Shown here: positions 1 to 58,507 of the stretch, one piece after another
How positions within the stretch are numbered: position 1 is the stretch's first letter
How the letters are laid out: the number at the start of each line of letters is the position of its first letter
Translations under genes and position numbers: made by a program
Notes under the pieces: generated by a model
The model's input: the letters and a program-made list of their open reading frames with translations, nothing else
Told to the model about the DNA's origin: nothing
Database searches by the model: none
DNA from: Nemertoderma westbladi
Taxonomy: Eukaryota; Animalia; Xenacoelomorpha
Length of the DNA stretch: 64,000 nt
Assembly (NCBI GenBank): GCA_032718475.1
Contig: JAUCBJ010002084.1
Span: forward strand, 1-64,000
Reading direction: 5' to 3'

Positions 1-76
1 TACCAACACAGCCGTATGACTACAGCATGCAGGGACATAACATATACCCAGGGGAGGGGGGAATTATTGCGGATAG

Positions 77-3000
77 GTGCATGGGCCCCAACATATTAAC
101 ATCAACCCCATTACCAAACATACCGGTGGGGGGGGGGGACAGGGTGACATTCCCCCATCACAATATCAACAATATACCCCGATGGTAGCAAGAACAACGA
201 GACCCCTGGACGAAAACAGATCGTGTGACACAGATATATGGAGGGGGCCGCTACCCCCAATGACATACCCAAGCCAGAGAAGGTCAAGAAGTAGGACAGA
301 CGGAACGCACCAAACAGGGGAAACTATACAGCACCCGTCGAAGCCATTGGAAGCGCAGGCGATAGGGATGGCCACGTTGATCGATGCTTTGAAAACGAGG
401 ATCGAGTTACCACCCGTGGAACCATTCAAGTTCGACGGGAGTAGGCCGGAAGAATATTTACAATTTCGGCGAATGTATAGCAACGAAATACTAACAAAAA
501 ACTTGACGCAGGCGGAGTGCCTAAAGTATCTACAAGTGTACACGGGAGGCCCAGCATACGATATCGTGAGGCAATATCAGGGAATAGAGGGCGGCTTCAC
601 GACAGCATGGCGGGCACTGGATAGGGAATACGGGCACCCGGCCAAGATCATCAGGCAGACGCTGAGAGGCATAACATCGGGTGGCCTACAGGACAACCCC
701 GTTAGCATTAAGACGTTTGCTAACAAAGTCGAAAAGGCGCTAATCGTGCTGAAGACGCTAGACGCGCCGTACGAGCTCAATGCGTCCAACAACATCACCA
801 CGATAGCGCAGGCACTACCGAACTGGCTGCGCAACAAGTGGAGGAAGATCGCTTTCTCCACTCGAGACAAGAAGGGTGTGGAACCGGGTTTAGAAGAAAT
901 GTCAAACTTCTTAAATTACGAGGCTGAACTAATAACAGACCCAGTCTATAGTGAAGATAGCCTGGGAAAGGGACCAAAGACAGATCACTACAGGCCGAAA
1001 CCAGAGCACAATACATCAAACGCATTGCCGAGGCTCAGGCAATCATTGCCATACGCAGCGACGCAGGGGACTGCAAGTCCACAGGCAAACGAAGACAAGA
1101 CTACATCATGGAACGGACAGGGGAACAATAACAACGTGAATAAACATAACCCCAGTACGTCCAGTAGGCCAAATCCAGTCAACAAGAATAGTAGGGACTT
1201 TGGTACGAATATAACTGCGATACGCAATGCATTGTATAAAGAGGGCTACGACCCAAAGAGCAAATGCCAGTTACACGCAAATGCGCTTCATAAAACCATG
1301 AACTGCAGGTACTGGCAGGCGCTACCGAGGCAAGACCAGATAGATTACGCGTCGAGCAATAAAATCTGCTCGCGATGTGTGAAGAGTGGACACAAGGCCA
1401 GGGAATGCCAAGAGAAGCCGGTCAAGTTTGGCCAAAGGAGAGGCCAAACGATGGCAACGAGCACGGTAGGGGCGAAGAAGAGAGGCACGGTGTTACTTGG
1501 AGTAGTACCGGTGCGAGTGATCGGGGAAGGCAATCGATCAGTAACAACACTAATGCTGGTTGATAGTGGAGCTGCCTTCACATTAGTCGAGGAATGGGTA
1601 GCCGAAGAAATAGGATTGAGAACAAGGCCAAGCAGGATGGCGGTAACAACCATCTCTAGCAAAGATGAGATCCTAGAGATGAGGACAGGACGGTGCGCAA
1701 TTGCAGCAGTGGCACCAGGATGCGATTATGGGGCAACCATCGACCCCATCCAAGTAATAGAGTCAATTAACATCAATGCCAGGCGGCCAACCAACATCGA
1801 GGTCGAGCAATACAAATTCCTGGACGACATTGACTTCTCGATCCCAGACGTGGACGTTAGGAAGGTATCCATCATAGTAGGAATGGACTGCCCGACGGCC
1901 CACGAAAGAATGCAAACGGTCTTCGGCGAAGACAAGCAGAGTGACCCGGTGGCTATATTAACACCATTCGGGTGGACGCTGAGTGGTCCAATTAAGAGCA
2001 AGATACCATTCAGGATGTCGGAGACATCAGGATGCATGTTCGCGGGAACAATGCAGGAAATGGGTGATGAGGGAGCAGAGGAGCAGCTTAAAAGACTGCT
2101 CAGACAAGACTTTGAGGGACTGAAAGAGACCGGGGTCGGGACCTCGGTAGAAGACAAACAGGCTCTACAAAGCGTGGAGGAATCGATGACGTGTGATGAG
2201 GGGCGGTATACAATAGGAATGGTATGGAAACTACCGAAGATACCGCTACCCGATAATAGAGGGATGGTACTCACGAGACTTCGTAAGCTGAAACAAACAC
2301 TAAAACGGAGCCCCGAGAAGAACGAGTACATTCACAAAACAATTAAGAAGTACGTCGAGAAGGGATGGGCCGTGGAGTTACCGGTCGACGAGCCGAACAC
2401 GGGCAGGACATACTACCTGCCACTCCACGTAGCATTAGACCCAAAGAAAGGTAAACTTAGGATGGTAGTCGATGCATCGGCAAAGACCGACGGAAAATGC
2501 TTAAACGATTACCTGTTGGAAGGCCCAAATATTTACAATTCGGGCATAGAGGTGTTACTTAGATTTCGAAATGGGAAACACGTCTTCACGTGTGACATAG
2601 AAGGCATGTTCAACCAGGTCCGTGTAACGGAAGAAGATAGTGACAGTCAACGCTTCTTATGGTATAACGGCGAAGAAGAACCGCCGGTAATACCAGCGTA
2701 TAAGATGGTAGTACAAAACATGGGGGCCAAGTCGTCCTCATTTACGACGACTATGGCAGTGAGAGACACGGTAAAGGGCAAGGAAGATAGATACAGCAGT
2801 AGGGCCGTCGATATGATCCGACGCGGCTTCTACGTAGACGACGGTATGGAGTCTGGAAATACGGTTGAGGAGATACTGGAAACAGGGCTCGAGGTTCGCG
2901 ACATCCTGAAAGGATCCGGCTTCAACCTGACCAAATTCCAATCCAGTTCAGAAGAATTTATCAAGGCAATAGAGGACAAGAAACCAGAATCGACCATGGA

Positions 3001-5470
3001 CAACCCTACAACAGCCAAAGGACAGGACATGGCGAATAAGAGAACACAATCTCAGCAAAAGGCATTGGGAATCGTGTGGGATAGAGGAACAGACGAACTG
3101 AAGTATCAGCTGAGCCAGGAGGGCGCAGACACCCATACGAAGAGGGGTTATGTATCGTATATAGCAAGGATATATGATCCCCTAGGCCTAGCATCCCCAT
3201 TACTAGTCACGGGGAAACAGATACTCAAGAGAGTATATAAATTGAAGGATGAGTGGGACGTAGAGGTACCAGAGGACATCAAGAAGCAGTGGAGCAAATG
3301 GACAGGAGACTTGGAGAGGATGGGAACATACAACATGCCGCGAGTGTATTTTCCGGACGGGAACATGACGAATCTGGACCTACATATGTTCTCCGACGCG
3401 TCGTTAGAGGCATACGGAGCGGCACTCTATTTAGTACAACGAGAGGGGGCTCACAAGCCCAGACTAGCCTTTAGCAAAGCTAAGTCAACGCCGCCAGATT
3501 CAGCATCTGTTCCCAAGTTAGAATTGACAGCTGCGAGACTAGGAGTTAGAGCCACAGCCTACCTAGTGGATACAATTCCCAACATAGTGGAGACACACTA
3601 CTGGACGGACTCCATGGTAGTGCTTGGTTGGCTACACAACGAAAAGACGAGATACCCGATATTCGTCGCAAATAGAGTGGACGAAATAAGAGCAACCACA
3701 GAACTAGAAAGGTGGCACTACTGCCCAACAGATGAGAACCCAGCGGACTTGCTGTCGAGGGGCGTGGAACGCCACACCTTCTTAAAGAAGGAAGTATTGT
3801 GGCAACATGGGCCACAATTTCTGAGCGTTAAAGAGGCCTGGCCGCCAATGAGAAAGGTGGAGCCGGGCTCAGAAGTGGTGTCAGAGGGAGAAGAGGGAGA
3901 CTCAGAGGGAGAAGAGATATACTCCCAGATGGTGAGGGAGATTAGGGACGTGCAACCAAAGCAAGAACTACGCGATAACCCGACGGACAAACTCCTCAGC
4001 TACAGTTCTAGTTGGTACAAGACCAAGAAATTAGTGGCGTACTGGAGAGCTTTCGGGAATTTCCTCGCGGGAGTTAATAAGGAGAAGAAAACCAGGGAAA
4101 CCATAGATCTGGAAGGAGCGGCCAAGGCAATAATCCGCTATGAACAACGAAAGAACTACGGCGACGAGGTAGAACGTGTCGGCAACCAACAGCACCTCCG
4201 ACGGGACAGCGAGTTGATTACACTGTCGCCGCAACTCAACGACGATGGGATTCTAGTAATGAATTCTACGGTGGGATATAACAACAGCATAGTCGTGCCA
4301 CCGAAACCCATCATCATTCCCACAGAATCGCCTATAGTCCACCAGATCATATGGGACTCCCACAAATCGATACTGCATGGGGGCACCAACCGAACCCTCA
4401 CAGAGATAAGGAGGACCTTTTGGGTCAAACAACTAAGGAAGAAGGTTAAAGCGGTAGTGGGGCAGTGCCAGACCTGCCGACGAGCGAAGAAGGAACGAGC
4501 CGTACAGGAGATGGCGCCACTACCGGCGAGTAGGGTAAGACAGCACGACCCGCCATTTACGCATTGCGGTGTGGACATGTTCGGGCCGATAAAGATCAAG
4601 GTGATGCGACACACGGAGAAACGCTACGGTATTATCTTCGTATGCAACAATACACGGGCGGTAGGGATAGAACTCGCCCAAGATGCAACCGCATCAGCAT
4701 TCATTAACGCCTTAGAAAGGTTTAGGGACCGCAAAGGTGGGACGATCGCAGTGATATACAGCGACAACGGCACCAACTTTGTGGGCGCAGAGAGTGAGAT
4801 GGCAGAGGCCTTGGACATCTTGGAGGGAGAAGAAGTCAGGGCGGCCATGAGGAGACTACAAGTAAAGTGGGAGAGAAGGACGCCGTATGCACCACATACA
4901 CTAGGATGCGTCGAGAGACTGGTGGGCAGTTCAAAGCGTCTAATGACGAAGTTAATGAACACCCACATGGTCACTGAGGACGTCTTACGGACAGTACTTG
5001 CGAAGTGCGAGGGGATCATTAATAGCAGACCGCTATATCCGGAGAATGATGACCCTGAGTCGTTAGACGTGTTGACGCCTAGCCATTTTCTGATGGAAAG
5101 GCCAGCGACCATCGATATGCGGGGTGTAGACCCAGATGATATACATTCACGCCAGAGTTGGAGGGTCGCTAAAGCAATAAGCGCAGAGTATTGGAGGAGG
5201 TGGGTAGAAGAATACCTACCCACGCTCCATAAGCGAAGCAAGTGGAGGAAACCGAATCGGGAGTTAAAAGTAGGAGATCTCGTAATCGTTACGGATGATA
5301 CTATCATCAACAACCAGTGGCGGTTGGCGAGAGTTGTAGGCACCTACTCCGACGAGGACGGAAAAGTCCGATCGGTAGAAGTGCGGATAGGCGGAAAGAT
5401 AGGTGCGAAGGACAGAAAAACCTACAGGAGAGCGGTAGGTAAATGCTGTCTTCTAGAAGGGGCACCTTAA
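77..5470 (+). CDS. BEL/Pao Gag-Pol polyprotein
   Basis: Gag FDGSRPEEYLQF/AWRALDREYGHP (DUF1759-like). Zn knuckles CQLHANALHKTMNC and CSRCVKSGHKAREC. Protease LVDSGA (~1555). RT CDIEGMFNQV and FYVDD (2831-2842). Pao-type YDPLGLASP. RNase H MFSDASLEAYGA, PKLELTAA, WTDSMVVL, NPADLLSRG. Integrase H-x4-HGG...CQTC, GVDMFGP, YSDNGTNFVGA. C-terminal WVEEYLPTL..W..LKVGDLV. The GTG at 77 is not the true start (see findings). Confidence 0.95.
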   Translation: MHGPQHININPITKHTGGGGGQGDIPPSQYQQYTPMVARTTRPLDENRSCDTDIWRGPLPPMTYPSQRRSRSRTDGTHQTGETIQHPSKPLEAQAIGMATLIDALKTRIELPPVEPFKFDGSRPEEYLQFRRMYSNEILTKNLTQAECLKYLQVYTGGPAYDIVRQYQGIEGGFTTAWRALDREYGHPAKIIRQTLRGITSGGLQDNPVSIKTFANKVEKALIVLKTLDAPYELNASNNITTIAQALPNWLRNKWRKIAFSTRDKKGVEPGLEEMSNFLNYEAELITDPVYSEDSLGKGPKTDHYRPKPEHNTSNALPRLRQSLPYAATQGTASPQANEDKTTSWNGQGNNNNVNKHNPSTSSRPNPVNKNSRDFGTNITAIRNALYKEGYDPKSKCQLHANALHKTMNCRYWQALPRQDQIDYASSNKICSRCVKSGHKARECQEKPVKFGQRRGQTMATSTVGAKKRGTVLLGVVPVRVIGEGNRSVTTLMLVDSGAAFTLVEEWVAEEIGLRTRPSRMAVTTISSKDEILEMRTGRCAIAAVAPGCDYGATIDPIQVIESININARRPTNIEVEQYKFLDDIDFSIPDVDVRKVSIIVGMDCPTAHERMQTVFGEDKQSDPVAILTPFGWTLSGPIKSKIPFRMSETSGCMFAGTMQEMGDEGAEEQLKRLLRQDFEGLKETGVGTSVEDKQALQSVEESMTCDEGRYTIGMVWKLPKIPLPDNRGMVLTRLRKLKQTLKRSPEKNEYIHKTIKKYVEKGWAVELPVDEPNTGRTYYLPLHVALDPKKGKLRMVVDASAKTDGKCLNDYLLEGPNIYNSGIEVLLRFRNGKHVFTCDIEGMFNQVRVTEEDSDSQRFLWYNGEEEPPVIPAYKMVVQNMGAKSSSFTTTMAVRDTVKGKEDRYSSRAVDMIRRGFYVDDGMESGNTVEEILETGLEVRDILKGSGFNLTKFQSSSEEFIKAIEDKKPESTMDNPTTAKGQDMANKRTQSQQKALGIVWDRGTDELKYQLSQEGADTHTKRGYVSYIARIYDPLGLASPLLVTGKQILKRVYKLKDEWDVEVPEDIKKQWSKWTGDLERMGTYNMPRVYFPDGNMTNLDLHMFSDASLEAYGAALYLVQREGAHKPRLAFSKAKSTPPDSASVPKLELTAARLGVRATAYLVDTIPNIVETHYWTDSMVVLGWLHNEKTRYPIFVANRVDEIRATTELERWHYCPTDENPADLLSRGVERHTFLKKEVLWQHGPQFLSVKEAWPPMRKVEPGSEVVSEGEEGDSEGEEIYSQMVREIRDVQPKQELRDNPTDKLLSYSSSWYKTKKLVAYWRAFGNFLAGVNKEKKTRETIDLEGAAKAIIRYEQRKNYGDEVERVGNQQHLRRDSELITLSPQLNDDGILVMNSTVGYNNSIVVPPKPIIIPTESPIVHQIIWDSHKSILHGGTNRTLTEIRRTFWVKQLRKKVKAVVGQCQTCRRAKKERAVQEMAPLPASRVRQHDPPFTHCGVDMFGPIKIKVMRHTEKRYGIIFVCNNTRAVGIELAQDATASAFINALERFRDRKGGTIAVIYSDNGTNFVGAESEMAEALDILEGEEVRAAMRRLQVKWERRTPYAPHTLGCVERLVGSSKRLMTKLMNTHMVTEDVLRTVLAKCEGIINSRPLYPENDDPESLDVLTPSHFLMERPATIDMRGVDPDDIHSRQSWRVAKAISAEYWRRWVEEYLPTLHKRSKWRKPNRELKVGDLVIVTDDTIINNQWRLARVVGTYSDEDGKVRSVEVRIGGKIGAKDRKTYRRAVGKCCLLEGAP

Positions 5471-5576
5471 ATTGGAGTTAGTGTGGAGTTTAGTCGTCCA
5501 AGTTTTGGACTGAGGGGGGTGGGATTGAGGGCGAGACGCCCTTCCCACACAAATAAAATAAAATAAAATAAAAAAT

Positions 5577-6170
5577 AGTTAGTTAGTTAGTAGGTACGTA
5601 GTACCTAGAGTTAGTTAGTTAGTAGGTACGTAGTGCCTAGAGTTAGTTAGTTAGTAGGTACGTAGTACCTAGAGTTAGTTAGTTAGTAGGTACGTAGTGC
5701 CTAGAGTTAGTTAGTTAGTAGGTACGTAGTACCTAGAGTTAGTTAGTTAGTAGGTACGTAGTACCTAGAGTTAGTTAGTTAGTAGGTACGTAGTGCCTAG
5801 AGTTAGAGAGTTAGTAGGTACGTAGTGCCTAAAGTTAGAGAGTTAGTAGGTACGTAGTACCTAGAGTTAGTTAGTTAGTAGGTACGTAGTACCTAGAGTT
5901 AGTTAGTTAGTAGGTACGTAGTGCCTAGAGTTAGAGAGTTAGTAGGTACGTAGTACCTAGTTAGAGTTAGAGTTAGTAGGTACGTAGTACCTAGTTAGAG
6001 TTAGAGAGTTAGTAGGTACGTAGTACCTCGTTAGAGTTAGAGTTAGAGGGTACGTAGTACCAATAGTTAGTTAGAGTTAGTAGGTACGTAGTACCTAGTT
6101 AGAGTTAGAGTTAGTAGGTACGTGGTACCTAGTTAGAGTTAGAGTTAAGGGGTACGTAGTACCATTAGTT
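5577..6170 (+). repeat. 18-copy ~32-bp tandem array inside the retrotransposon; each unit holds a TAGGTAC-GTA-GTACCTA hairpin
   Basis: Unit AGTTAGTTAGTTAGTAGGTACGTAGTACCTAG, counted 18 times. The linker varies between (AGTT)n and (AGAGTT)n; the hairpin core is kept. Confidence 0.95.
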
Positions 6171-6658
6171 AGAGAGAGAGAGTAAGAGGTAAAAGGGGTA
6201 AAATAGGATATAGATATTAGTTAGCAGTAAGTAGAGTTAGTAGCGAGAGGGGGGCATATGAGTACAGCTGGATAAATCGTGTGGCCACACGACGCATACT
6301 GCTGTACTGCATGGGCCCACAGAGTAGGCCAGAATATGGATCAGAGAATAGAATAAATCCATAGGCAGTAGTAGGTAGTAGGACAGTAGGATCAAAACAA
6401 ACAAATAAATAGAATAGGGCTAAAATCGTAAAATAGTGGCAACACAAGGAAAGTCGTTCTAGAACATAATAAAAGTAACGGACGGAAATTGTAAATTAGG
6501 CTGATTTACTAGCTTCAAAATTAATCAGGTTAAATTTAGGCTAAAAGGCGCAATTAAGTAGAAAGTAGGCCATTATCGAACTGTACGAAACATCTTAAAT
6601 ACTTCACTCATCTGTATTGCGCCTTGGTAAGGCACCACCCTGCAGGTGAGCGAGTGTA

Positions 6659-9196
6659 GTGTTCGGAATGGCGAGTAAGTTGATCAGGAAGAGGAAGGCG
6701 GAGTCAGGAGGAAAAGAAATACTGGTGGATTTCACCGAAAGACACCCGGAAGAGAAGACGAGAGGATACTACGAGAAGTTGGAAAGGGGTCACGCGGCAC
6801 GAGCGCTGCAGGACCACTTCCGGGAGATGCACGAGCAGCGGCTGGTCGGGACCTACGGAACGCCGTCGCTGGACAACGCGATCTTCCAACACTTCCACTA
6901 CGTGGTGAAAGGGGACGAGGCGAAGTTCGGGATTCCGAAGTATCCGAGGGAATCGCCGAGGAAGGACTGGAAAAGATTCATAGAGTCCGTCAACAGAGGA
7001 GGATATATGATCCTAGATGACGAGGGAACCGTGGAAGACGAAGCGGGTTTGAGACGAGGAACGGCAGGATCGGCCAGGACCATACTCCTACATTTGGCCG
7101 CGCCAAATGGGGACATCTTCTTATTCGACCTAGGGACGTATGGGAAGAAGGACGGGCCGAAATTAGACCGATTACCGAAAGCGGTACAAGTCTTAGTAAG
7201 AGAGAAGTCGACGACGAAAGTGGGATCGGCGATTCGCGAGGACGCGGAGAGGATCATCGGTCCGGACGCCACCAACCTCCTGGATATGCAGAAAGTCTTT
7301 ATGGCTATGACGGCACCGGATGGATTGGGGGTAGTCGAAAACACAGGCCAATGCGGGGCTGTGGCGATGGGCCAATTATTGGGGCTCGTATGCCACAAAC
7401 CGATGGACTGGGGAAAGTTTAGGGAAGAATACGGGGCAGAACTAGCAAACTCGCTGAAGTGGGGAGCGAGACCAGGAAAGCAGGAGGTATATCAGTTTCG
7501 CAGAGGAGCGATAAAGGTATATCAGAAGCGATATATCCTGCAAGAGGACTGGATGATGATAAGTTTGTTTAACTTATTCATGACCGTAGTTATCGAAAGG
7601 GAACCAGGGGCATTTCTGTTATCGGGATCACCCCTAAGCTACAGGAGAGCCTTTAAGACGGCCTTCGACGGTCTGGTAGACCACCCGGGGCTGAAGGGCG
7701 AGTCGGTGTACTACAACAGCCGACATCTGGTAGACGGGGAGACAGATACACCGTATCAGAGATGGGAACAGCTAGAGGTGGACAGACGAGAAGCAAAGCG
7801 ACTGGAAGAAGTCGCTAGACGGGAGAGGATAGAAGCAGAGGAGAGGGAAGAGGAGGCCAGGGCACAGAGTTACGGCTTCGAGGAACAGGCGGGCCTAGAC
7901 GAACTTCATTGGACTTCGTCAGGGAGTTCGGGGGAGTCTCTAGGGCGAGAATTGGGATGGACGGTGGGATCGCCGAAACAGTCGACGTCGGGGTTGCAAA
8001 CGATGCCCATACCAGCGGGCGCCGAGGGCGACCAACCGCCAAGGAAGTTAAGGGAGCTAGAGGGATGGAGAGCTACGGGCGAGAGTCAAGGCGGGAAGGG
8101 ACATAGTGGATCCATCGGGATACCGGGATTGGAGACACTACCAGAAGAGGAGGACGACGAGTTCGGAGAGATGCCGCCCATCGAAAGGATAGGCCACTCG
8201 GACACGGACTGGGTTGGCGGAAGGGTGGTGACAGCCAGTGGGGCGAGGGCCTTCTGGAACAGATCCGGCAAGCGGACCTGGGTGCACGAGGAGCCGGCGA
8301 TGGATTTCGCGGGGAGCACCATCAGGTTGGGCGAGCAACCGGGAACAGCACCACGGATAGTATTCGGGGAGACGATGCCCGAGAGGGGCGGAGAGATCGA
8401 CGTAAACAGGGAGAGCAACGTAGAGAAGTTCGCCTACCAGCGACTCCATAGACCGTGGAGATCGCTTGGGACGAAAGACGAGGTGGGACGGGAGACATTG
8501 GTACTCGGCTGCGACTACTGTGGGAGACAGACCCATCAGGAAAGCAGCTGCCTATACCGGTTCCAACGGGGAACCTTTTGTCTCTACTGTAGAGAACCAA
8601 GCCACAGGATGGGGGCGTGTCCACGGTTGCATAACCGATGTCCAAAGTGCCACTTTCGGGGACACTACGGGCGCGAGTGCGACTGGATGAGCGACGAGGA
8701 AAAGTTCACAAGATTCGAGGAGTGGGCCGACGTCGGGGCCATGACGCGCCAGCGCATGAAGGCCCAAGAGTTCAAGTGGGGTTTCTTCCTCATAAACCAG
8801 GAGACCCACATGGAAATCATAAAGCGAAGGTTACCGTTTACCTATCAAGAGGTAGCAACGGCGGCGTCGTTCGCCGGAGTTATGAACACGCAACGGTACC
8901 TGGACAGGTGGACACCAGAGAACCGGAGGGAGTTTAGGGATTTCTTGGCGGAACACGTACCAAAGGCAATGAAAATGATCCTATGGGACGCCACTCGAGG
9001 GAGACAACCGGGCCATTCTGAGGGGCCACCGGCGAAGCGATATCGGGCACTAATAACACCAGCGCCCAAGGAGCCAACGACCGGGATTAGCAAGGAAGTG
9101 GCGGCGAAGGTCCGAAAGCAGAAAGCGGATGATGCCAGAGGGACGGTGATAGCCAAGAAACGGGCCAGGGAAGAGGACGTCAGGAGGAACAGATAG
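6659..9196 (+). CDS. Accessory ORF2: DEDDy-type (DnaQ/WRN/Mut-7/EXD-like) 3'-5' exonuclease domain, acidic helical linker, three CCHC zinc knuckles, basic C-terminus
   Basis: Intact 845-codon ORF (first ATG at 6668). ExoI-like YMILDDEGT (~7004-7030). LHLAAPNGDIFLFDL..LPKAVQVLV. ExoII-like KVGSAIREDAERI (~7217). LLDMQKVF. QLLGLVCHKP..W. ExoIII-like QKRYILQED (~7523-7549). Knuckles CDYCGRQTHQESSC, CLYCREPSHRMGAC and CPKCHFRGHYGREC (~8510-8680). Confidence 0.8.
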   Translation: MFGMASKLIRKRKAESGGKEILVDFTERHPEEKTRGYYEKLERGHAARALQDHFREMHEQRLVGTYGTPSLDNAIFQHFHYVVKGDEAKFGIPKYPRESPRKDWKRFIESVNRGGYMILDDEGTVEDEAGLRRGTAGSARTILLHLAAPNGDIFLFDLGTYGKKDGPKLDRLPKAVQVLVREKSTTKVGSAIREDAERIIGPDATNLLDMQKVFMAMTAPDGLGVVENTGQCGAVAMGQLLGLVCHKPMDWGKFREEYGAELANSLKWGARPGKQEVYQFRRGAIKVYQKRYILQEDWMMISLFNLFMTVVIEREPGAFLLSGSPLSYRRAFKTAFDGLVDHPGLKGESVYYNSRHLVDGETDTPYQRWEQLEVDRREAKRLEEVARRERIEAEEREEEARAQSYGFEEQAGLDELHWTSSGSSGESLGRELGWTVGSPKQSTSGLQTMPIPAGAEGDQPPRKLRELEGWRATGESQGGKGHSGSIGIPGLETLPEEEDDEFGEMPPIERIGHSDTDWVGGRVVTASGARAFWNRSGKRTWVHEEPAMDFAGSTIRLGEQPGTAPRIVFGETMPERGGEIDVNRESNVEKFAYQRLHRPWRSLGTKDEVGRETLVLGCDYCGRQTHQESSCLYRFQRGTFCLYCREPSHRMGACPRLHNRCPKCHFRGHYGRECDWMSDEEKFTRFEEWADVGAMTRQRMKAQEFKWGFFLINQETHMEIIKRRLPFTYQEVATAASFAGVMNTQRYLDRWTPENRREFRDFLAEHVPKAMKMILWDATRGRQPGHSEGPPAKRYRALITPAPKEPTTGISKEVAAKVRKQKADDARGTVIAKKRAREEDVRRNR

Positions 9197-9874
9197 GTTT
9201 TCAGAGTCGAGGGAGTGAGACTGAGACTGGGACGTGGTGCGCCTGGAAGGCGCCGCGTGGAACGTACGAACTACTAAGTACAAATTTAATTAATGCAAAT
9301 AATCATATAAGTGCAATTTGTATGTACGTACGTAGTAATTAGTAATTTAGAAATATACATACGTTCGGAGTGAGTACTATAGTCATACAACCTTTCTCAA
9401 CTAGCTACTGGGACTGGGGGGAATAACTGACTATGGGACTATGGACGAGACAACTGACAATTTCACACTTCTTGAGTGCGACGGCACGAGAGGGGGGGGG
9501 GGGAGGTTCGTCAGGAGAGATAAAATAGTCGAAGTGGAATTGAGGATCGGAGTAATAGGGTGGAGTGCAGAGAGAGTGCGGACGCAACTCTAGTGTGGGG
9601 GAGGAGAATAAGAGGCTGAGTGAGGGACGTGGAGGTCCGGGGGTATGAGAGAGTTAGGGTGAGAGTGGAGAGGAGATAGGGCGAAAGTGTTGGGGAAACA
9701 AAAGTCGTGTGAGAGGTGAGCGCGATCAGCCCGACATGAGACGCCAGGCACACAGGGTAGCGTTATCATACCCATAGGGGGCGGCCTGGAAAGCCGGCTC
9801 CTAGAGAAAATAATTCCACCCCACACCCGATACTAGATCGGGATCCAGCGGGATTGTAGCGCACTTTTTGGTTG

Positions 9875-9912
9875 ATGCTATCTTCTTACCGGGAAGATAG
9901 CATGGGGGGGAG
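9875..9912 (+). promoter_or_regulatory. Polypurine tract preceded by an 11-bp stem-loop
   Basis: ATGCTATCTTC-ttaccgg-GAAGATAGCAT (9875-9903), then GGGGGGGAG (9904-9912), then TG. Confidence 0.85.
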
Positions 9913-10451
9913 TGTTAGCTTATTCAATCCCGCCAACACCCCATAAAGTTATTAGCCAATAAGCAATATTGGGAGCCACGAGATTGGGTAATTAACCAAC
10001 TCGTGCCATCCCAATAAGAGTGGGAAGGAAGCACACAATAGAGGGTCAGGGGCCAAACCCCTAACCCAAAGGAAATAGCTGGAGTGAACGGGAACACTCC
10101 AAAGGGCGCCAACAAGGGTAACAACCAATCAGAGGGGGGCAAGGCATCGATTAGGTAGTAATTAGGCCAACCGTGCAGTATAGCCACTTGGCAGTAATAT
10201 TACCTATTCAGTCATATCAGTGCAGCAGTGCTAGCGTAGGTTAATAGTTAATTAGTTTAGTTAGGGGAGCACGGGACTTTAGTTACCGTATCCCGCCTAC
10301 CGTATAATTCACAATATATCTATATCCTATAACCTATTATTATACACCGAACTTCAGAACTCATTTAACTTCATTCACTCTTTATACACGGCGGGGACGC
10401 GTAAACTGAATACCAACCGGATAAATCGGGATCCTCCTGGATCCCGTCACA
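9913..10451 (+). repeat. 3' LTR (~540 bp) of the BEL/Pao element
   Basis: Starts TGTTAG right after the PPT. TATA-like TATATCTATAT/TATAA at ~10315-10332. Terminal palindrome CGGGATCC-tcct-GGATCCCG, then TCACA at 10451, after which LINE endonuclease-like coding sequence begins. The right end is inferred because the 5' LTR is not available for comparison. Confidence 0.7.
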
Positions 10452-13161
10452 GTCTTGACATCCCACTTCTATTATTATCTTGCTATGCACCTGACCCCTC
10501 GAGGGGATGTTCAGCCTACGAGGAGTTCTTGGGGAGACTGGGCTCAATCCTCGATTCAAATCCAGACACCCTCCCAATTGTATTAGCCGATACGAACGCG
10601 GATGTTGGGCCACTACAAGGGCCCAGATATGGTAGGTGTAAAGCGACACTAAGAGGACGTCGCCTCAACGAGTTCCTAAACTCCTTTAACCTCCTTGCCG
10701 CCGACACTACACCTAAGTTCTCAGGCCCTACTACTACCTTCCGGGGTAATGGCGCTTCATATATTGACCATGTTCTTACGACATCAGCAGGACTCGACCT
10801 TATTACAACCGGAAGGGTCTTTGACGACGATGCCATTAACAATATGTCCGACCATGTCCCTATCCAGGTAAATATAACCATCAATGTAAAGGAACCAAGG
10901 GTCAGAACAGGTAATGATAACAACATCAAAATCACGAGATTTGCGTGGGCGAAGGTTTCCAATGAACAAATAAACAACTACAGCAACCTGGTGGAGAATG
11001 ATATTCGGAGGATCCTATCAGAAACCAAATTGTCCTCAGTTGACTGGGCGTATTCAGACTTAGATACTTGGGCATCAGAAATCCAACGGATAATATGCAA
11101 TGCTGCGTTGTCATCATTCCCTATTCACAAGAAACATAAATTCACAAAGAATATCCGTATTAGATGCAACACACTGAGAGAACGCTGTAAAACTACCAAG
11201 CAATTATATAAACTTTGGTGCAGGGACGAGAAGGGCAAAGGTAGTGCACACGGAACTGCCTACAAGGACTCACGGAGATCAGTTCGAAGACTCAAAAACC
11301 TGTTATCTCGTAATCTAGTTTCAAACGACGTGCACAGAAAGTCATCATTGCTAAAGAAGAGTCCCCGACAGTTCTGGAGAAGCTTCAAATCAAAAAGTGA
11401 CACCACCCCCAATGAAGGACTCCAAGACACTATCAGGAACAACCTAACCAAGGGGCACACAAAGGGGTCTGAATATGACTCATCCATAGAGCACTTGACG
11501 AATGATCTCAATGACAAATGCAAACAGACCGACATCCCAACCATATCAGAAATAACAATAAGGAGGGCTATAAGCGAGCTGTCGAAGGGGAAAGCTCCAG
11601 ACACATCATCTCTCGTCGTAGAGCTGTTTCTCGCCTTAGATCCTGATTTCATCTGCCCTGTACTAGCCGACATATATAATGCCTGCTTCCGACTAGGAAA
11701 TGTTCCAAAGCCCTTCGGCGATACCATCGTCACACACCTATTCAAAGGGAAAGGGCGTAACCCTCTCATGGCTACCTCATATCGTCCAATCGCCACGGTC
11801 AGCGTTCTAGCCAAAATATTTGAAGCCATCATCCTGTGCGAATACCTCTCCTCCCCAAATTTTATTATGCAGTCCCAACTGGCCTACCAATCCAAAATCG
11901 GTTCAGACCTTATACTTGGCACTGTTCTGGAATGTCTGGAACATCATAGGAGCCGGGGGAACACAGTTTTTATGTGTCAGCTCGACATCACTGCAGCGTT
12001 CGACAATGTAGACTACATTACCCTGTTCAACAAGTTAACAGAACACCTAAACCCGCACATCTGTCTTGCCATTCTCTCATACTACACATACACTGTTGCA
12101 TTTTTGAAATTTGAATCCATTATAAGTGGTGATGGCATCGCATTGATCAGGGGCCTTAAACAGGGATCTCTGCTATCCCCAACATTATTCAATCTGTATA
12201 CTGGAAGCATTCACTCAGGACTTGAATCCACTGAACACGGATGTCATGTGCACAATACATGGCTTGGGGTGATATCTTATGCCGACGACATCTTGGTCAT
12301 TGGCACAGCCGCCTCGGAGGTAGAGTTTCTGGTCGGGCGGGTCGTATCGGGCCTAAATGAGATCAACCTTGACATTGAACAGACAAAAACTAAGTGGATC
12401 ATCTGCCGAGGGAAAAAGTGTACGGACACTGCGACACCAACATTCCTTAACATAAATGGGACCCTAGTACCCGCAAAGCCATCATTAACATTCTTGGGCT
12501 TCAAATTTACATCTACATCGAATAGACTGGCCGACTGCATTCGAATAATCGCTTCAGCCGCTGACACATTTCATAGAAACAGTTGGACCGTTCGTTGGCT
12601 GCATACCGACATCCTTAGTCACTTATGGAAGGTAATCGGTGTCCCCAACATTTTATATAGCTTAAAGTTCCTCATTGGTTCGTTATCATCCAGCGACATA
12701 GCGCCTTAGATGTCTACTACAGAAAAATCCTTCGTGGCCTACTGTGCCTTGGGACGTACGTCAATAATCACACCATTCTCAGTATACTGCATTGCAAACC
12801 GATATCTACGGAAGCATTCTCTGCCTCAATTGGTACAATAACCCGATGTACACAATGTCCAAATCCAACACTGCAATCTATCCTACGAATATCTTTGCAA
12901 ACCCACTCTGATCCTCACTCCAGCTATGTTGGTCTCGGCAGCTCTTACAGTAAATGCAACAATTTTTATCCGATGCCACACATCTCTTCTCTCCTCACCT
13001 TCCAGTATAATAAGGAAGCATTGTTGACAAGGATGAATTGTGGTTCGATGTCAACAAGCGATCGCATAAAAATGGATCTCATCACAAATTGTTACAACCT
13101 CCAGAATAAATCATTCTCATCTAGGCACTCTCGCATCCTTGAATTCTTCAACGCGATATAG
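10452..13161 (+). pseudogene. LINE ORF2 (AP endonuclease C-terminal half + reverse transcriptase) with one frameshift near 12705
   Basis: The frame upstream of 10529 reads LLLLSCYAPDPSRGCSAYEEFL (APE YAP motif). Then IVLADTNA, SYIDHVL, SDHVPI. RT KGKAPD, SYRPIATVSVLAKIFE, LDITAAFDNV, GLKQGSLLSPTLFNLY, SYADD. After the TAG at 12707 the -1 frame continues LDVYYRKILRGLL... in frame with ORF 12895-13161. Confidence 0.88.
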
Positions 13162-46523: not shown

Positions 46524-46789
46524 CTGTACTTTCCTCCATCGCAATGCCGGTGACACTGAACGCCGTTACCACACTCGGTTCTACAAGACAGCCGCTTGCG
46601 TTCACGAGACGGATTCCAGTGGCTTCTGCATCAAGAACGGCCCCCATTGCGCCTTCTCTCACGGCCCCGAGGACACGAGGGTTTCCCGCCTGGACCCAAA
46701 GGCCGTGTCTATAATGCCCAAGGAAGGTCTACAGAGCGCCATAGTAACGGACAAGGGGAGCGCACTTAACGAGGATCCGAGATGGAGAG
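46524..46789 (+). CDS. unk: Unkempt coding exon 3 (end of finger 2, finger 3, linker)
   Basis: CTFLHRNAGDTERRYHTRFYKTAACVHETDSSGFCIKNGPHCAFSHG...NEDPRWR; boundaries ttccag|C and G|gtaagt. Confidence 0.95.
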
Positions 46790-46933
46790 GTAAGTTATGG
46801 ATAATAACGAATATCCCGATATGGAAGGGTAAGTTATGGATAATGACGAATATCCCGATATGGAAGGGTAAGTTATGGATAATGACAAATATCCCGATAT
46901 GGAAGGGTAAGTTATGGATAATGATGAATATCC
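46777..46933 (+). repeat. 39-bp x4 repeat spanning the exon3/intron3 junction
   Basis: Unit CCGATATGGAAGG|GTAAGTTATGGATAATGACGAATATC, with GTAAGT at 46790, 46829, 46868 and 46907. Confidence 0.92.
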
Positions 46934-51311: not shown

Positions 51312-54300
51312 ATGATTGTCTTACGGAATGTCCCATTATGTGGTTGGCTGATGGTCTTACGGAATGTCCCATTATGTGGTTGGCTGATGGTCTTACGGAA
51401 TGTCCCATTATGTGGTTGGCTGATGGTCTTACGGAATGTCCCATTATGTGGTTGGCTGATTGTCTTACGGAATGTCCCATTATGTGGTTGGCTGATGGTC
51501 TTACGGAATGTCCCATTATGTGGTTGGCTGATGGTCTGACGGAATGTCCCATTATGTGGTTGGCTGATGGTCTAGCGGAATGTCCCATTATGTGGTTTGC
51601 TGATGGTCTTACAGAATGTCCCATTATGTGGTTGGCTGATGGTCTGCCGGAATGTCCCATTATGTGGTTGGCTGATGGTCTGGCGGAATGTCCCATTATG
51701 TGGTTGGCTGATGGTCTTACAGAATGTCCCATTATGTGGCTGGCTGATGGTCTGGCGGAATGTACCATTCATTATGTGGTTGGCTGATGGTCTGGCGGAA
51801 TGTCCCATTATGTGGTTGGCTGATGGTCTGACGGAATTTCCCATTATTATTATTATTATTATTATTCACGTACACCAGTTACCTGGGAACAAAGTATGCA
51901 CTGTACTTACATAGATACATGGTGTAGATAGAGCACAATTTGTACTAATGGTTGAACATAAACGGCAGTAAAAGAAGGAACACCAAACAAAAACACCAAA
52001 ACCACAAAATTAGACAGATGAAACGTAATCCAATATAGATTTCAGCTCAATATTTGAAAAATTATCTACAGAAGCAACATTGGAGATCGCATCAATTAAT
52101 TCTCGTTGGGTTGGCTGATGGTCTTACAGAATGTCCCATTGTAGGGTTGGCTGATGGTCTTACGGAATGTCCCATTATGGGGTTTGCTGATGGTCTGGCG
52201 GAATGTCCCATTATGTGGTTGGCTGATGGTCTTACAGAATGTCCCATTATGTGGTTTGCTGATGGTCTGGCGGAATGTCCCATTATAGGGTTGGCTGATG
52301 GCCTGGCGGAATGTCCCATTATGGGGTTGGCTGATGGTCTTACAGAATGTCCCATTATGTGGTTTGCTGATGGTCTGGCGGAATGTCCCATTATGGGGTT
52401 GGCTGATGGTCTTACAGAATGTCCCATTATGGGGTTGGCTGATGGTTATACGGAATGTCCCATTATGTGGGTGGCTGATGGTCTAGCGGAATGTCCCATT
52501 ATGTGGTTGGCTGATGGTCTGGCGGAATGTACCATTATGTGGTTGGCTGATGGTCTGGCGGAATGTCCCATTATGTGGTTGGCTGATGGGCTGACGGAAT
52601 TTCCCATTATGGGGTTGGCTGATGGTCTTACAGAATGTCCCATTGTAGGGTTGGCTGATGGTCTTACGGAATGTCCCATTATGGGGTTTGCTGATGGTCT
52701 GGCGGAATGTCCCATTATGTGGTTGGCTGATGGTCTTACAGAATGTCCCATTATGTGGTTTGCTGATGGTCTGGCGGAATGTCCCATTATAGGGTTGGCT
52801 GATGGCCCGGCGGAATGTCCCATTATGGGGTTGGCTGATGGTCTTACAGAATGTCCCATTATGTGGTTTGCTGATGGTCTGGCGGAATGTCCCATTATGG
52901 GGTTGGCTGATGGTCTTACAGAATGTCCCATTATGGGGTTGGCTGATGGTTATACGGAATGTCCCATTATGTGGGTGGCTGATGGTCTAGCGGAATGTCC
53001 CATTATGTGGTTGGCTGATGGTCTTACAGAATGTCCCATTATGTGGTTGGCTGATGGTCTTACAGAATGTCCCATTATGTGGTTTGCTGATGGTCTGGCG
53101 GAATGTCCCATTATGGGGTTGGCTGATGGTCTTACAGAATGTCCCATTATGGGGTTGGCTGATGGTCTGTCGGAATGTCCCATTATGGGGTTGGCTGATG
53201 GTCTTACAGAATGTCCCATTATGGGGTTGGCTGATGGTCTTACGGAATATCTAATTTGTGGTTGGCTGATGGTCTTACGGAATGTCCCATTATAGGGTTG
53301 GCTGATGGTCTTACAGAATATCCCATTATGGGGTTGTCTGATGGTCTTACAGAATGTCCCATTATGGGGTTGGCTGATGGTCTTACGGAATATCTAATTT
53401 GTGGTTGGCTGATGATCTTACGGAATGTCCCATTATAGGGTTGGCTAATGGTCTTACGGAATGTCCCATTATGGGGTTTGCTGATGGTCTGGCGGAATGT
53501 CTCATTATGGGGTTGGGGTCTTACGGAATGTCCCATTATGGGGTTGGCTGATGGTCTTACAGAATGTCACATTATAGGGTTGGCTGATGGTCTTACGGAA
53601 TGTCCCATTATGGGGTTTGCTGATGGTCTGGCGGAATGTCCCATTATGCGGTTGGCTGATGGTCTTACAGAATGTCCCATCATGTGGTTTGCTGATGGTC
53701 TGGCGGAATGTCCCATTATGTGGTTGGCTGATGGTCTTACAGAATGTCCCATTATGTGGTTTGCTGTTGGTCTGGCGGAATGTCCCATTATGCGGTTGGC
53801 TGATGGTCTTACAGAATGTCCCATTATGTGGTTGGCTGATGGTCTGGCGGAATGTCCCATTATGTGGTTGGTTGATGGTCTGACGGAATTTCCCATTATG
53901 TGGTTGGCTGATGGTTATACGGAATGTCCCATTATGTGGGTGGCTTGATGGTCTAGCGGAATGTCCCATTATGTTGTTGGCTGATGGTCTGGCTGAATGT
54001 CCCATTATGTGGTTGGCTGATGGTCTTACGGAATGTCCCATTATGTGGTTTGCTGATGGTCTGGCGGAATGTCCCATTATGTGGTTGGCTGATGGTCTTA
54101 CAGAATGTCCCATTATGTGGTTTGCTGATGGTCTGGCGGAATGTCCCATTATAGGGTTGGCTGATGGCCTGGCGGAATGTCCCATTATGGGGTTGGCTGA
54201 TGGTCTTACAGAATGTCCCATTATGTGGTTTGCTGATGGTCTGGCGGAATGTCCCATTATGGGGTTGGCTGATGGTCTTACAGAATGTCCCATTATGGGG

Positions 54301-57300: not shown

Positions 57301-58507
57301 CCATTATGTGGTTTGCTGTTGGTCTGGCGGAATGTCCCATTATGCGGTTGGCTGATGGTCTTACAGAATGTCCCATTATGTGGTTGGCTGATGGTCTGGC
57401 GGAATGTCCCATTATGTGGTTGGTTGATGGTCTGACGGAATTTCCCATTATGTGGTTGGCTGATGGTTATACGGAATGTCCCATTATGTGGGTGGCTGAT
57501 GGTCTAGCGGAATGTCCCATTATGTTGTTGACTGATGGTCTGGCGGAATGTCCCATTATGTGGTTGGCTGATGGTCTGCCGGAATGTCCCATTATGGGGA
57601 TGGCTGATGGTCTGGCGGAATGTCTCATTATGGGGTTGGCTGATGGTCTTACGGAATGTCCCATTATGTGGTTGGCTGATGGTCTTACGGAATATCCCAT
57701 TATGTGGTTTGCTGATGGTCTGGCGGAATTTCCCATTATAGGGTTGGCTGATGGTCTTACGGAATGTCCCATTATGTGGTTGGCTGATGGTCTGACGGAA
57801 TGTCCCATTATGTGGTTGGCTGACAGTCTGGCAGAATGTCCCATTATGTGGTTGGCTGATGGTCTTACAGAATGTCCCATTATGTGGTTGGCTGATGATC
57901 TGGCGGAATGTCCCATTATGTGGTTGGCTGATGGTCTGGCGGAATGTCCCATTATGGGGTTGGCTGATGGTCTGGAGGAATGTCCCATTATGTGGTTAGC
58001 TGATGGTCTTACGGAATGTCCCATTATGTGGTTGGCTGATGGTCTTACGGAATGTCCTATTATGTGGTTGGCTGATAGTCTGGCGGAATGTCCCATTATG
58101 GGGTTGGCTGATGGTCTTACGGAATGTCCCATTATGTGGTTGGCTGATGGTCTTACGGAATGTCCTATTATGTGGTTGGCTGATAGTCTGGCGGAATGTC
58201 CCATTATGGGGTTTGCTGATGGTCTGGCGGAATGTCCCATTATGGGGTTGGCTGATGGTCTGGAGGAATGTCCCATTATGTGGTTAGCTGATGGTCTTAC
58301 GGAATGTCCCATTATGTGGTTGGCTGATGGTCTTACGGAATGTCCTATTATGTGGTTGGCTGATAGTCTGGCGGAATGTCCCATTATGGGGTTGGCTGAT
58401 GGTCTGGCGGAATGTCCCATTATGGGATTGGCTGATGGTCTGGCGGAATCTCCCATTATTGGGGTTGGCTGATAGTCTGGCGGAATGTCCCATTATGGGG
58501 TTGGCTA
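51312..58507. repeat. 36-bp minisatellite (~7 kb) filling unk intron 6, interrupted at ~51845-52107
   Basis: Unit GAATGTCCCATTATGTGGTTGGCTGATGGTCT(TAC/GGC)G. Identical ORF translations recur at offsets of 504 and 2262 bp. Confidence 0.98.
51843..52107 (-). mobile_element. 5'-truncated LINE 3' end inserted antisense into the 36-bp array
   Basis: Minus strand reads ...ELIDAISNVASVDNFSNIELKSILDYVSSV*, then a T-rich UTR and an (AAT)n tail, seen as (ATT)8 on + at 51843-51866. Confidence 0.6.

Follow-up and report, generated by a model that had tools for sequence, protein, structure and literature searches.

Extra 3′ ORFs of LTR retrotransposons are usually taken to be env. The window analysed here, a stretch of 64,000 nt at the start of contig JAUCBJ010002084.1 of Nemertoderma westbladi (GCA_032718475.1), carries an intact long ORF (ORF2) in the env slot of a BEL/Pao element, which the initial annotation read as a DEDDy 3′-5′ exonuclease fused to three zinc knuckles. 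This raises the questions of what ORF2 encodes, whether it belongs to the element, and what it might do there.

Layout of the element

The features of the element within the window are:

1–181 (+): 5′ leader (the first bin already shows element-level contig depth; no second LTR in the window)
182–5470 (+): BEL/Pao gag-pol, a single ORF of 1762 aa terminating in TAA (Pfam, stop context)
5471–6667 (+): non-coding spacer with a 32 bp tandem repeat, 17 copies at 5577–6132 (TRF)
6668–9196 (+): ORF2, 842 aa (first ATG at 6668, stop at 9194–9196)
9904–9912 (+): polypurine tract (PPT), 9 nt (sequence)
9913–10451 (+): 3′ LTR, 539 bp, TG...CA (sequence, depth step, flank contigs)

The window begins inside the 5′ leader, and the 5′ LTR and PBS fall outside it. 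The gag-pol ORF contains DUF1759, protease, RT, the Pao Peptidase_A17, integrase and DUF5641 (Pfam matches to Peptidase_A17, E 5e-40; DUF5641, 2e-24; Integrase_H2C2; and DUF1759). This agrees with the Belpaoviridae pattern of gag and pol in one or two ORFs with the order PR-RT-RH-IN, as does the presence of the Pao-specific families Peptidase_A17, DUF1759 and DUF5641. The PPT and 3′ LTR likewise correspond to the tract of about 10 nt and the LTR of 0.2–1.2 kb typical of the family. PF05380 is present in 120 of 120 pol relatives among the matches listed.

The 3′ boundary is sharp. Just past 10451 the contig-derived depth, which does not equate to copy number, drops from tens of thousands to less than 200 in two runs (X1 and X2), and in both of them the match to flank contigs starts exactly at 10452. 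The flank beyond the 3′ LTR is itself a LINE. Self-BLAST of 9501–10460 matched only itself, and there is no second LTR inside the window; paired LTRs are seen in relatives (797 bp repeats at 95% in L023, 103 bp in L013), several of which carry a PBS-like TGGCGCCCAAC after CA. Low-depth deletion forms lacking parts of ORF2 occur in run X1 (joints 8674–9219, 8481–9220 and 7999–8966). ORF2 sits where it was first placed, between a BEL/Pao gag-pol identified by Pfam and the PPT and 3′ LTR.

The ORF2 protein

Counted from GTG 6659 to the stop at 9194–9196, ORF2 is intact over the 845 codons originally reported, and from ATG 6668 it encodes 842 aa. The GTG is disfavoured as a start, although not decisively, by a 1-base deletion at 6657 that is frequent among the copies; the first ATG occurs at 6668. 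From the N-terminus, the protein consists of the exonuclease domain, a long helix, a disordered linker, the triple CCHC knuckle with a helical module, and a basic tail:

6893–7681 (+): DEDDy (EXD2/WRN/Nibbler-like) exonuclease domain, about aa 76–338 (AF2 model, Foldseek, VIA, profile)
7016–7024 (+): ExoI, D117-x-E119 (invariant columns of alignment A4; aligns with the EXD2 DxE)
7241–7243 (+): ExoII, D192 (family alignment; the sole variant listed for sibling copies is synonymous)
7532–7546 (+): ExoIII, Y289-x-x-x-E293 (family alignment; Glu in a column that is mostly Asp in relatives)
7886–8494 (+): predicted disordered linker, about aa 407–609 (pLDDT below 50; no matched stretch in relatives)
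8510–8551, 8579–8620 and 8639–8680 (+): three CX2CX4HX4C knuckles (sequence motif)
8693–9001 (+): conserved helical module 3′ of the knuckles, about aa 676–778 (alignment; pLDDT 78–96)

The ExoI (LDDEG, from aa 116) and ExoII (KVGSAIRED, from aa 184) motifs were found as annotated, and D117, E119 and D192 supply the DxE and D expected of a DEDDy enzyme. For ExoIII, the annotated YILQED begins at aa 289 and Y289 of the YxxxD pattern is present, but the family alignment places E293, not D294, in the column of the acidic ligand, ruling out D294. The tetrad is therefore D117/E119/D192/E293. Of the 39 family members whose tetrad is complete, 6 have Glu as the fourth ligand, making it a natural family variant.

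The three knuckles noted initially start at aa 615, 638 and 658, and their Cys/His columns are invariant or nearly so among 31 aligned sequences. The helical module carries the motifs FE..AD.G..T and WGF; for it, ESM Atlas returned only zf-CCHC/DUF8363 leads (below 0.9). As had been annotated, there is no signal peptide and no TM helix: the highest 19-residue hydropathy is only 1.25 and the N-terminus is not hydrophobic, which rules out an env-like protein.

The exonuclease domain was modelled by AF2 with a pLDDT of 79 and a pTM of 0.78. By VIA, the predicted domain model matches NrnC (Z 15.4, rmsd 3.0, 172 aligned), Nibbler (Z 15.3, rmsd 3.3, 199 aligned) and WRN (Z 15.1, rmsd 3.0, 179 aligned); these are tied, and their substrates differ. 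EXD1 and Egalitarian also lie near the top together with Nibbler, and Pol I proofreading domains appear among the matches alongside EXD2 and WRN. A DnaQ/RNase H-like fold is thus predicted, with Z scores of 15.1–15.4. By sequence, the closest solved relative is EXD2, not Nibbler/Mut-7 or EXD1: the family profile of the domain matches human EXD2 with E 7.6e-13, spanning ExoI to ExoII with a weak ExoIII stretch. Derivation of the domain from EXD2 is a lead suggested by this profile. Foldseek, VIA and the EXD2 profile all support, for the predicted model, the initial assignment to the WRN/EXD/Nibbler group; the model matched the anticipated fold, but Pfam finds no family in ORF2 at E up to 1. For PF01612 the cut-off of 23.6 bits was missed (the best relative, P0027, reaches 23.3 bits), and none of 26 domains matched it in a further scan. 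An HRDC/Rrp6 type can be ruled out: Pfam finds no HRDC domain in ORF2, in the model the exonuclease is followed by a long helix that gives way to a disordered stretch, and the exonuclease-only profile gave no match to Rrp6 at E up to 1.

Relatives, linkage to pol and selection

A knuckle-motif scan of metagenomes gathered 120 loci. Both family searches were driven by the knuckles, and elements with the nuclease but without knuckles lie outside the sample; the same exonuclease is present in 55 of the 58 knuckle loci long enough to show it. One locus, L071, was a bacterial chance match to the motif and was discarded. All 30 relatives that were looked up come from metagenome-type sources and are named at most 'hypothetical protein'. 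No ORF2 relative was found in viral contigs searched by protein and by motif, and none of the 120 loci matched the window by blastn. A word-indexed protein search with ORF2 or alignment A1 was also without a match, although this method missed known members as well.

Pol lies directly upstream of the ORF2-like gene in 34 of 40 informative loci. The other six show no pol there, and in a freshwater family that carries the ORF (L008, L032 and L072) the 1.3–2.3 kb upstream of the exonuclease domain lack pol. The Pao family model was matched by 24 of 25 pol ORFs tested, the 25th being a C-terminal piece with DUF5641, and among the 52 loci that reach at least 4 kb, 9 are LTR-bounded or circular units. 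The pol loci bearing ORF2 span 23–34 distinct integrase clusters. Trees of integrase and exonuclease (34 rows) have matching clades, with a Mantel rho of 0.88 (0 of 5000 permutations), so ORF2 is an old, inherited accessory gene. The exonuclease domain diverges faster than the integrase (median identity 0.20 vs 0.38).

Among sibling copies, 22 of 26 variants in ORF2 are synonymous, against an expected fraction of 0.34. Only ExoII is well tested among these copies, because no more than 25 bases separate the codons of ExoI and ExoIII from the ends of the compared stretch, a zone in which one known variant dropped out. Between relatives, dN/dS is 0.10–0.54 in five pairs with an intact tetrad and 0.04–0.26 in seven pairs in which it is not intact. 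Purifying selection, proposed as a check on the initial reading, was thus found at both levels. It extends to a clade of 15 members that have lost the catalytic residues while the domain remains under selection; judged from these sequences, a purely catalytic role for ORF2 is weakened, and RNA binding is indicated as the core role.

Its place inside the element, its co-inheritance with pol and its purifying selection show ORF2 to be an accessory gene passed down within a BEL/Pao lineage, and the acidic tetrad is present in the family of this copy; depth across the family and the flank step at 10451/10452 agree that it belongs to the element. Alternatively, ORF2 might have been a passenger that does nothing for the element, either a gene captured from the host or a separate mobile unit inserted into the element, and the deletion forms of run X1 and the freshwater family without nearby pol would fit this. 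Yet ORF2 is covered across the family like pol, its domain is under purifying selection, and it follows pol in 34 of 40 loci and 23–34 integrase clusters with congruent trees; the relatives looked up, all metagenomic and at most hypothetical proteins, also speak against it. An independent insertion is ruled out by the pol linkage, the trees and the selection, and the passenger reading, largely refuted, is highly improbable.

Expression of ORF2

In 12 of 42 relatives the ORF2-like gene is in frame with pol behind a single TGA, and 10 of these 12 junctions carry dead exonuclease versions. Readthrough of such junctions is possible, going by their frame, and would put the protein into the particle. 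This reading is weakened by the poorly conserved 5′ linker (dN/dS 0.35–0.64; first 40 codons 0.33–1.07), by a conserved Met about 65–70 codons upstream of the exonuclease domain, and by close relatives (L033, L002, L037 and L062) with a stop or a different frame at the junction. In the present element, stop readthrough is ruled out: gag-pol ends in TAA and is followed by the tandem-repeat spacer, whose frame is broken by indels; sibling copies carry deletions of 1, 2 and 6 bases, one at 6657 just ahead of the ORF2 start. With 1.2 kb of spacer without a conserved frame between the pol stop and ORF2, translation of ORF2 would here rely on an RNA of its own, subgenomic or spliced.

Comparison with known systems

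The bdelloid precedent mentioned in the initial annotation is supported by the published account: Juno and Vesta LTR elements and Athena/Terminon Penelope-like elements carry a DEDDy ORF3 (Rodriguez et al. 2017, PMC5408684). Like ORF2, the ORF3 of Juno, Vesta and Athena follows pol as an additional reading frame where env would sit, and its product is an RNase D-like DEDDy exonuclease. The rotifer elements belong to other LTR and Penelope-like groups, whereas the host of ORF2 is BEL/Pao. The main text of that paper describes no CCHC fusion and places Zn-knuckles in gag and pol; the rotifer motif is DEED, that of the ORF2 family D-E-D-E or DEDD. As presented there, the rotifer ORF is family-specific and recently gained, while ORF2 tracks pol across a deep lineage, one clade of which is dead yet conserved. 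No BEL/Pao element with a DEDDy extra ORF turned up in the literature searches, in line with the earlier statement that no BEL/Pao case with this knuckle fusion was known.

RNase D of T. brucei (TbRND; PMC7797062; PDB 7C42–7C4C) is described as a DEDDy exonuclease followed by tandem CCHC knuckles, and is the top Foldseek match of the full ORF2 model (domain Z 13.2–13.8). According to that source it is a cellular mitochondrial enzyme with four knuckles and a 28 aa linker; ORF2 has three knuckles plus the helical module and a linker of about 270 aa. By sequence the two share weak knuckle similarity only, and their architectures are probably convergent. EXD2 (PMC6648332; PDB 6K17), the best solved sequence-profile match, is described as a membrane-anchored, domain-swapped host dimer without knuckles, in contrast to ORF2, which has no TM segment. 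Dada DNA transposons also carry a DEDDy exonuclease, reported as inserted within the DDE transposase (PMC3706591), while ORF2 stands as an ORF of its own in an LTR element. Env-bearing Belpaoviridae share gag-pol, an extra 3′ gene, a PPT and an LTR of 0.2–1.2 kb, and the ICTV profile of the family lists gag, pol and env only (PMC8742986); their extra gene is env, whereas ORF2 lacks a TM helix and has a predicted nuclease fold.

Possible functions

The gene-level description of ORF2 is almost certain, and the exonuclease of this copy, with Glu as the fourth ligand, is probably catalytically active. In the explanation we favour, the product would be an EXD2/WRN-type DEDDy 3′-5′ exonuclease of predicted fold, with a long flexible linker and a tethered three-knuckle module, its likely task being to bind RNA of the element itself and to engage or trim RNA 3′ ends on it. 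The knuckles would grip single-stranded RNA and present its 3′ end to the nuclease, as in T. brucei RNase D, where an exonuclease plus CCHC knuckles acts on RNA (PMC7797062). Because the catalytically dead versions are equally conserved, the core job may be RNA binding in the element ribonucleoprotein, shielding, maturing or routing element RNA. The whole mechanism, including its target, is put forward tentatively, as a plausible reading. The analogy with TbRND is loose because of the difference in linker length. Also to be counted against the mechanism are the dual substrate of EXD2, which is reported to cleave DNA as well as RNA (PMC6648332), the tied structural matches with differing substrates, and the 6 of 40 loci without upstream pol.

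ORF2 could instead act in trans against host defence, by binding, sequestering or trimming host piRNAs, siRNAs or their precursors, or as a decoy for the host DEDDy factors of the small-RNA pathways, Nibbler/Mut-7 and EXD1. Nibbler, EXD1 and Egalitarian are among the best structural matches, although these ranks are tied and show fold, not function, and by sequence the profile favours EXD2 over Nibbler or EXD1. The dead but conserved versions parallel EXD1 and Maelstrom, two DEDD proteins of the piRNA pathway that are cited as inactive (PMC5408684). The family is very abundant in the host runs (contig-derived depth two orders of magnitude above the flank) and the exonuclease domain diverges faster than the integrase, but the low dN/dS in tested pairs gives no sign of an arms race, and a general suppressor would presumably aid competing elements too. 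Such a role is possible but doubtful. An elaborated version, in which an EXD2-like nuclease was captured by a deep, undescribed lineage of BEL/Pao elements in aquatic animals, joined to a nucleocapsid-like knuckle module and put to use as a piRNA/siRNA countermeasure, one branch becoming a pseudo-nuclease decoy shipped as Gag-Pol-Exo by UGA readthrough, seems unlikely. A role on cDNA while it is being reverse-transcribed or integrated, either proofreading RT or trimming the 3′ ends of DNA at strand transfers, would draw on the matches to EXD2, WRN and Pol I proofreading domains and on the ability of NC-like knuckles to bind ssDNA as well; a readthrough fusion to Pol would also fit. The Dada DEDDy domain has been proposed to process cleaved 3′ ends (PMC3706591). 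On catalysis only, this would leave the 15-member dead clade under purifying selection unexplained, and all but two of the 12 in-frame junctions come from dead versions, making it distinctly improbable.

Significance

DEDDy accessory genes are already known in other mobile-element groups. ORF2 represents a second, long-lived use of the env slot in BEL/Pao, for a predicted nuclease and zinc-knuckle protein of a type invisible to Pfam, present in at least 23–34 distinct families, in which putatively active and dead branches alike are under selection. Since the family offers naturally paired active and dead versions and a domain that is soluble and well predicted, processing of the element's own RNA and counter-silencing can be tested against each other in vitro. 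To our knowledge, few cases are documented in which a transposon encodes a suppressor of small-RNA silencing in animals, and counter-silencing by ORF2, if true, would therefore be notable.

The extra ORF and its element

ORF2, the extra ORF of the BEL/Pao element, is intact and contains the ExoI (LDDEG), ExoII (KVGSAIRED) and ExoIII (YILQED) motifs quoted in the initial annotation, as well as three CX2CX4HX4C knuckles (aa 615, 638 and 658); it has no transmembrane segment. The BEL/Pao identity is borne out by one single 1762-aa gag-pol with Pao signature families, lying 5′ of ORF2 across a 1.2 kb spacer. A purine tract and an LTR follow ORF2 on its 3′ side, while the 5′ LTR lies outside view because the window begins within the element.

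Features of the window (forward-strand coordinates)
5577–6132: 17 copies of a 32-bp tandem repeat, in the pol-ORF2 spacer of the element
6659–9196: ORF2, 845 codons from GTG 6659, or 842 aa from ATG 6668
9913–10451: 3′ LTR, 539 bp, TG...CA
10452–12709: LINE, with RT by Pfam
14857–39690: satellite array, 59 bp x 418
~46540–46790: exon-like stretch
51313–58506: satellite array, 36 bp x 200, with open repetitive frames
58904–64000: satellite array, 29 bp x 177

The 32-bp repeat differs in length among element copies and has a possible regulatory role in ORF2 expression. The element is inserted in the LINE ORF, at a point that, from APE-like motifs, we take to be its endonuclease-coding part. The exon-like stretch presumably corresponds to the zinc-finger region of unkempt, which would place the host of the window among the animals and the satellites within a host gene or next to one.

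ORF2 is a component of the element. Contigs from four public runs were placed on window positions 1–11000; in the two deep runs the summed depth, which is not a copy number, was ~20,000–230,000 per bin from 1 to ~10,280, ORF2 included, and 166–187 in the last bin, where the flank is LINE. The match of flank contigs begins at 10452 in both of these runs, and therefore fixes the LTR end. Among sibling copies, 22 of the 26 variant sites with a share of at least 15% between 7000 and 7560 are synonymous (expected 0.34 for transitions; P 2e-7), pN/pS over this stretch is ~0.10, and no indels were listed there. Frame-breaking indels are present in the pol-ORF2 spacer of copies, and a few low-depth joints remove pieces of the ORF2 3′ half.

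Related loci

Relatives were sought with the exact DNA motif of the second and third knuckles, which was found at no fewer than 120 loci in metagenome contigs (~300 estimated; flanks obtained for 80) and had 0 matches in viral contigs. Among the matches listed, 55 of the 58 loci with at least 1.8 kb upstream of the motif carry an exonuclease domain, 43 of them in the same ORF as the knuckles. The domain is missing from L071, a bacterial chance match to the motif that was rejected as a family member, and from L047 and L059, BEL/Pao elements whose second ORF (~900–1060 aa) has the knuckle module and no detectable exonuclease domain. Also among the matches listed, pol is upstream in 34 of the 40 loci having the domain and at least 1.5 kb upstream of it, and was not detected in L005, L008, L012, L032, L052 and L075. 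Two of these, L005 and L052, are kin of L051, where pol lies 3.3 kb upstream, and so are probably too short to reach it. Peptidase_A17 was matched by 24/25 pol ORFs picked from pol-positive loci. Terminal repeats occur in 9 of the 52 loci of at least 4 kb; those of L023 (797 bp, 95%) enclose pol and ORF2, those of L013 and L022 are partial, and six of the nine loci are circular contigs, the form expected from collapsed LTR elements.

In four loci (L008, L032, L072 and L103) the exonuclease-knuckle ORF is 507 aa long and almost identical, and pol was not detected over the 1.3–2.3 kb upstream of the domain; a non-autonomous element, a long spacer and a host copy are candidate explanations. Annotation was looked up for 30 relatives, all nameless or 'hypothetical', and their hosts would be aquatic animals. 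Just after the LTR end, L013, L062, L065, L066, L068 and L069 have a PBS-like TGGCGCCCAAC, which we take to resemble a tRNA-Lys site. In contrast, the PBS of Belpaoviridae is of the Arg or Gly kind according to the ICTV profile (PMC8742986).

Integrase and exonuclease are both available for 34 rows, and grouping these by integrase identity yields 34 clusters at 90%, 29 at 80% and 23 at 70%. Main clades are common to the integrase tree and the exonuclease tree (a quick version), the window row being a long branch without placement in both. Pairwise integrase and exonuclease identities are correlated (Mantel rho 0.88, 0/5000 permutations), with kin not independent. In a quickly built RT-RH tree (52 rows), a branch with support 86 separates the window and 24 loci from 27 BEL/Pao pols, the latter having come from a protein search irrespective of ORF2 presence. 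The ORF2-bearing lineage may have a single origin.

The exonuclease domain

A Pfam search, proposed in the initial annotation, matched no family in ORF2. By phmmer against 1.84 billion representatives (E ≤ 0.001), ORF2 matched 73 proteins, the best stretch being the knuckle module in 71. An iterated profile on the small set of 38 matches having >200 aa before the knuckles aligned 33 of them to ORF2 aa 86–317 with ExoI, ExoII and ExoIII. The family profile matched human EXD2 (E 4.5e-11), then Egalitarian and WRN; the exo-only profile, built from 26 members that are for the most part intact, found EXD2 at E 7.6e-13, followed by unrelated rows, with WRN at E 0.54. ORF2 has no HRDC domain and lies closer to EXD2 than to the Rrp6 type. 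The domain model (pLDDT 79, pTM 0.78) matched Nibbler, Trypanosoma brucei RNase D (TbRND) and EXD1 by Foldseek, and tied among NrnC, Nibbler and WRN (Z 15.1–15.4). A PF01612 cluster was returned by the ESM Atlas at 0.94 (34% of members). Predicted fold and EXD2 profile match agree on a putative DEDDy exonuclease, as originally annotated. The tetrad is D117, E119, D192 and E293; the fourth ligand is thus Glu, at a position where Asp prevails (Glu in 6/39 members with the full tetrad). In the full-length model aa 407–609 are disordered, and the knuckles with the helices after them form a confident second module. Of three protein relatives (P0003, P0043 and P0050), two have a duplicated knuckle module and one a weak C-terminal homeodomain match.

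The precedent named in the initial annotation is published: PMC5408684, PMC6431247 and PMC6338049 describe DEDDy extra ORFs in the bdelloid rotifer LTR elements Juno and Vesta and in Athena/Terminons, and PMC3706591 describes a DEDDy domain in Dada transposons. For Belpaoviridae the ICTV profile gives gag, pol and env only (PMC8742986), and the word 'exonuclease' is absent from the main text of the BEL/Pao survey PMC3118150 and from PMC12440569. The initial annotation knew of no BEL/Pao case with this knuckle fusion, and a full-text search of a mostly open-access literature found no BEL/Pao element with a DEDDy ORF.

Intact and dead forms

By hand count, all four acidic residues are present in 39 of 83 aligned domains, matches <150 aa being left out; in about a dozen further domains one motif is cut off or badly aligned. 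One clade of 15 members lacks these residues throughout; the integrase tree supports it at 97/99 and the exonuclease tree at 100.

Loci of the dead clade and loci with ORF2 in the pol frame
Dead clade: L002, L007, L031, L033, L034, L037, L038, L039, L060, L062, L065, L066, L068, L069, L080
In-frame junctions: L007, L021, L029, L031, L034, L039, L065, L066, L068, L069, L076, L080

In overlapping pairs, dN/dS is 0.04–0.26 for the dead-clade domain (7 pairs), indicating strong purifying selection, 0.10–0.54 for the intact domain (5 pairs) and 0.04–0.33 for the knuckle module. The dead-clade domain is, by its sequence, a putative transposon-borne pseudo-nuclease.

Expression of ORF2

The pol stop of the window element is TAA and the spacer is without frame constraint, so that ORF2 would likely need its own RNA or an internal start. 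In 12/42 relatives ORF2 is in the pol frame behind one stop, with 162–293 open codons. This stop is TGA in 12/12 cases versus 12/30 of the remaining relatives, and C is next in 10/12 (CGG in three, CAA-TTA in two); UGA-CGG and CAA-UYA are leaky contexts according to part of PMC2754532. Programmed readthrough giving a candidate Gag-Pol-Exo fusion is therefore conceivable at these junctions, if somewhat doubtful. It is unproven because the linker peptides are poorly conserved, and against it stand a conserved Met ~65–70 codons before the exonuclease domain, a stop or different frame in four close relatives (L033, L002, L037 and L062), and the fact that 10/12 in-frame junctions belong to dead versions, 9 in the 15-member clade.

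Possible function

The CCHC knuckles of TbRND bind single-stranded RNA and boost 3′ trimming by the attached DEDDy domain, according to part of PMC7797062. ORF2 has the same two parts, and by analogy its knuckle module would likely grip RNA, with 3′ ends engaged. The observation made in the initial annotation is confirmed; its interpretation, an RNA-targeted nuclease that may counter small-RNA silencing or process RNA or cDNA ends, is supported in part only. That dead forms have been kept speaks for binding, directed at the element's own RNA or at host small RNAs, rather than for proofreading or DNA-end processing, which is improbable. Binding against host small RNAs is rather unlikely, and binding of the element's own RNA has, tentatively, close to an even chance. 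Since the dead-clade domain is under purifying selection, the conserved function does not always depend on catalysis.
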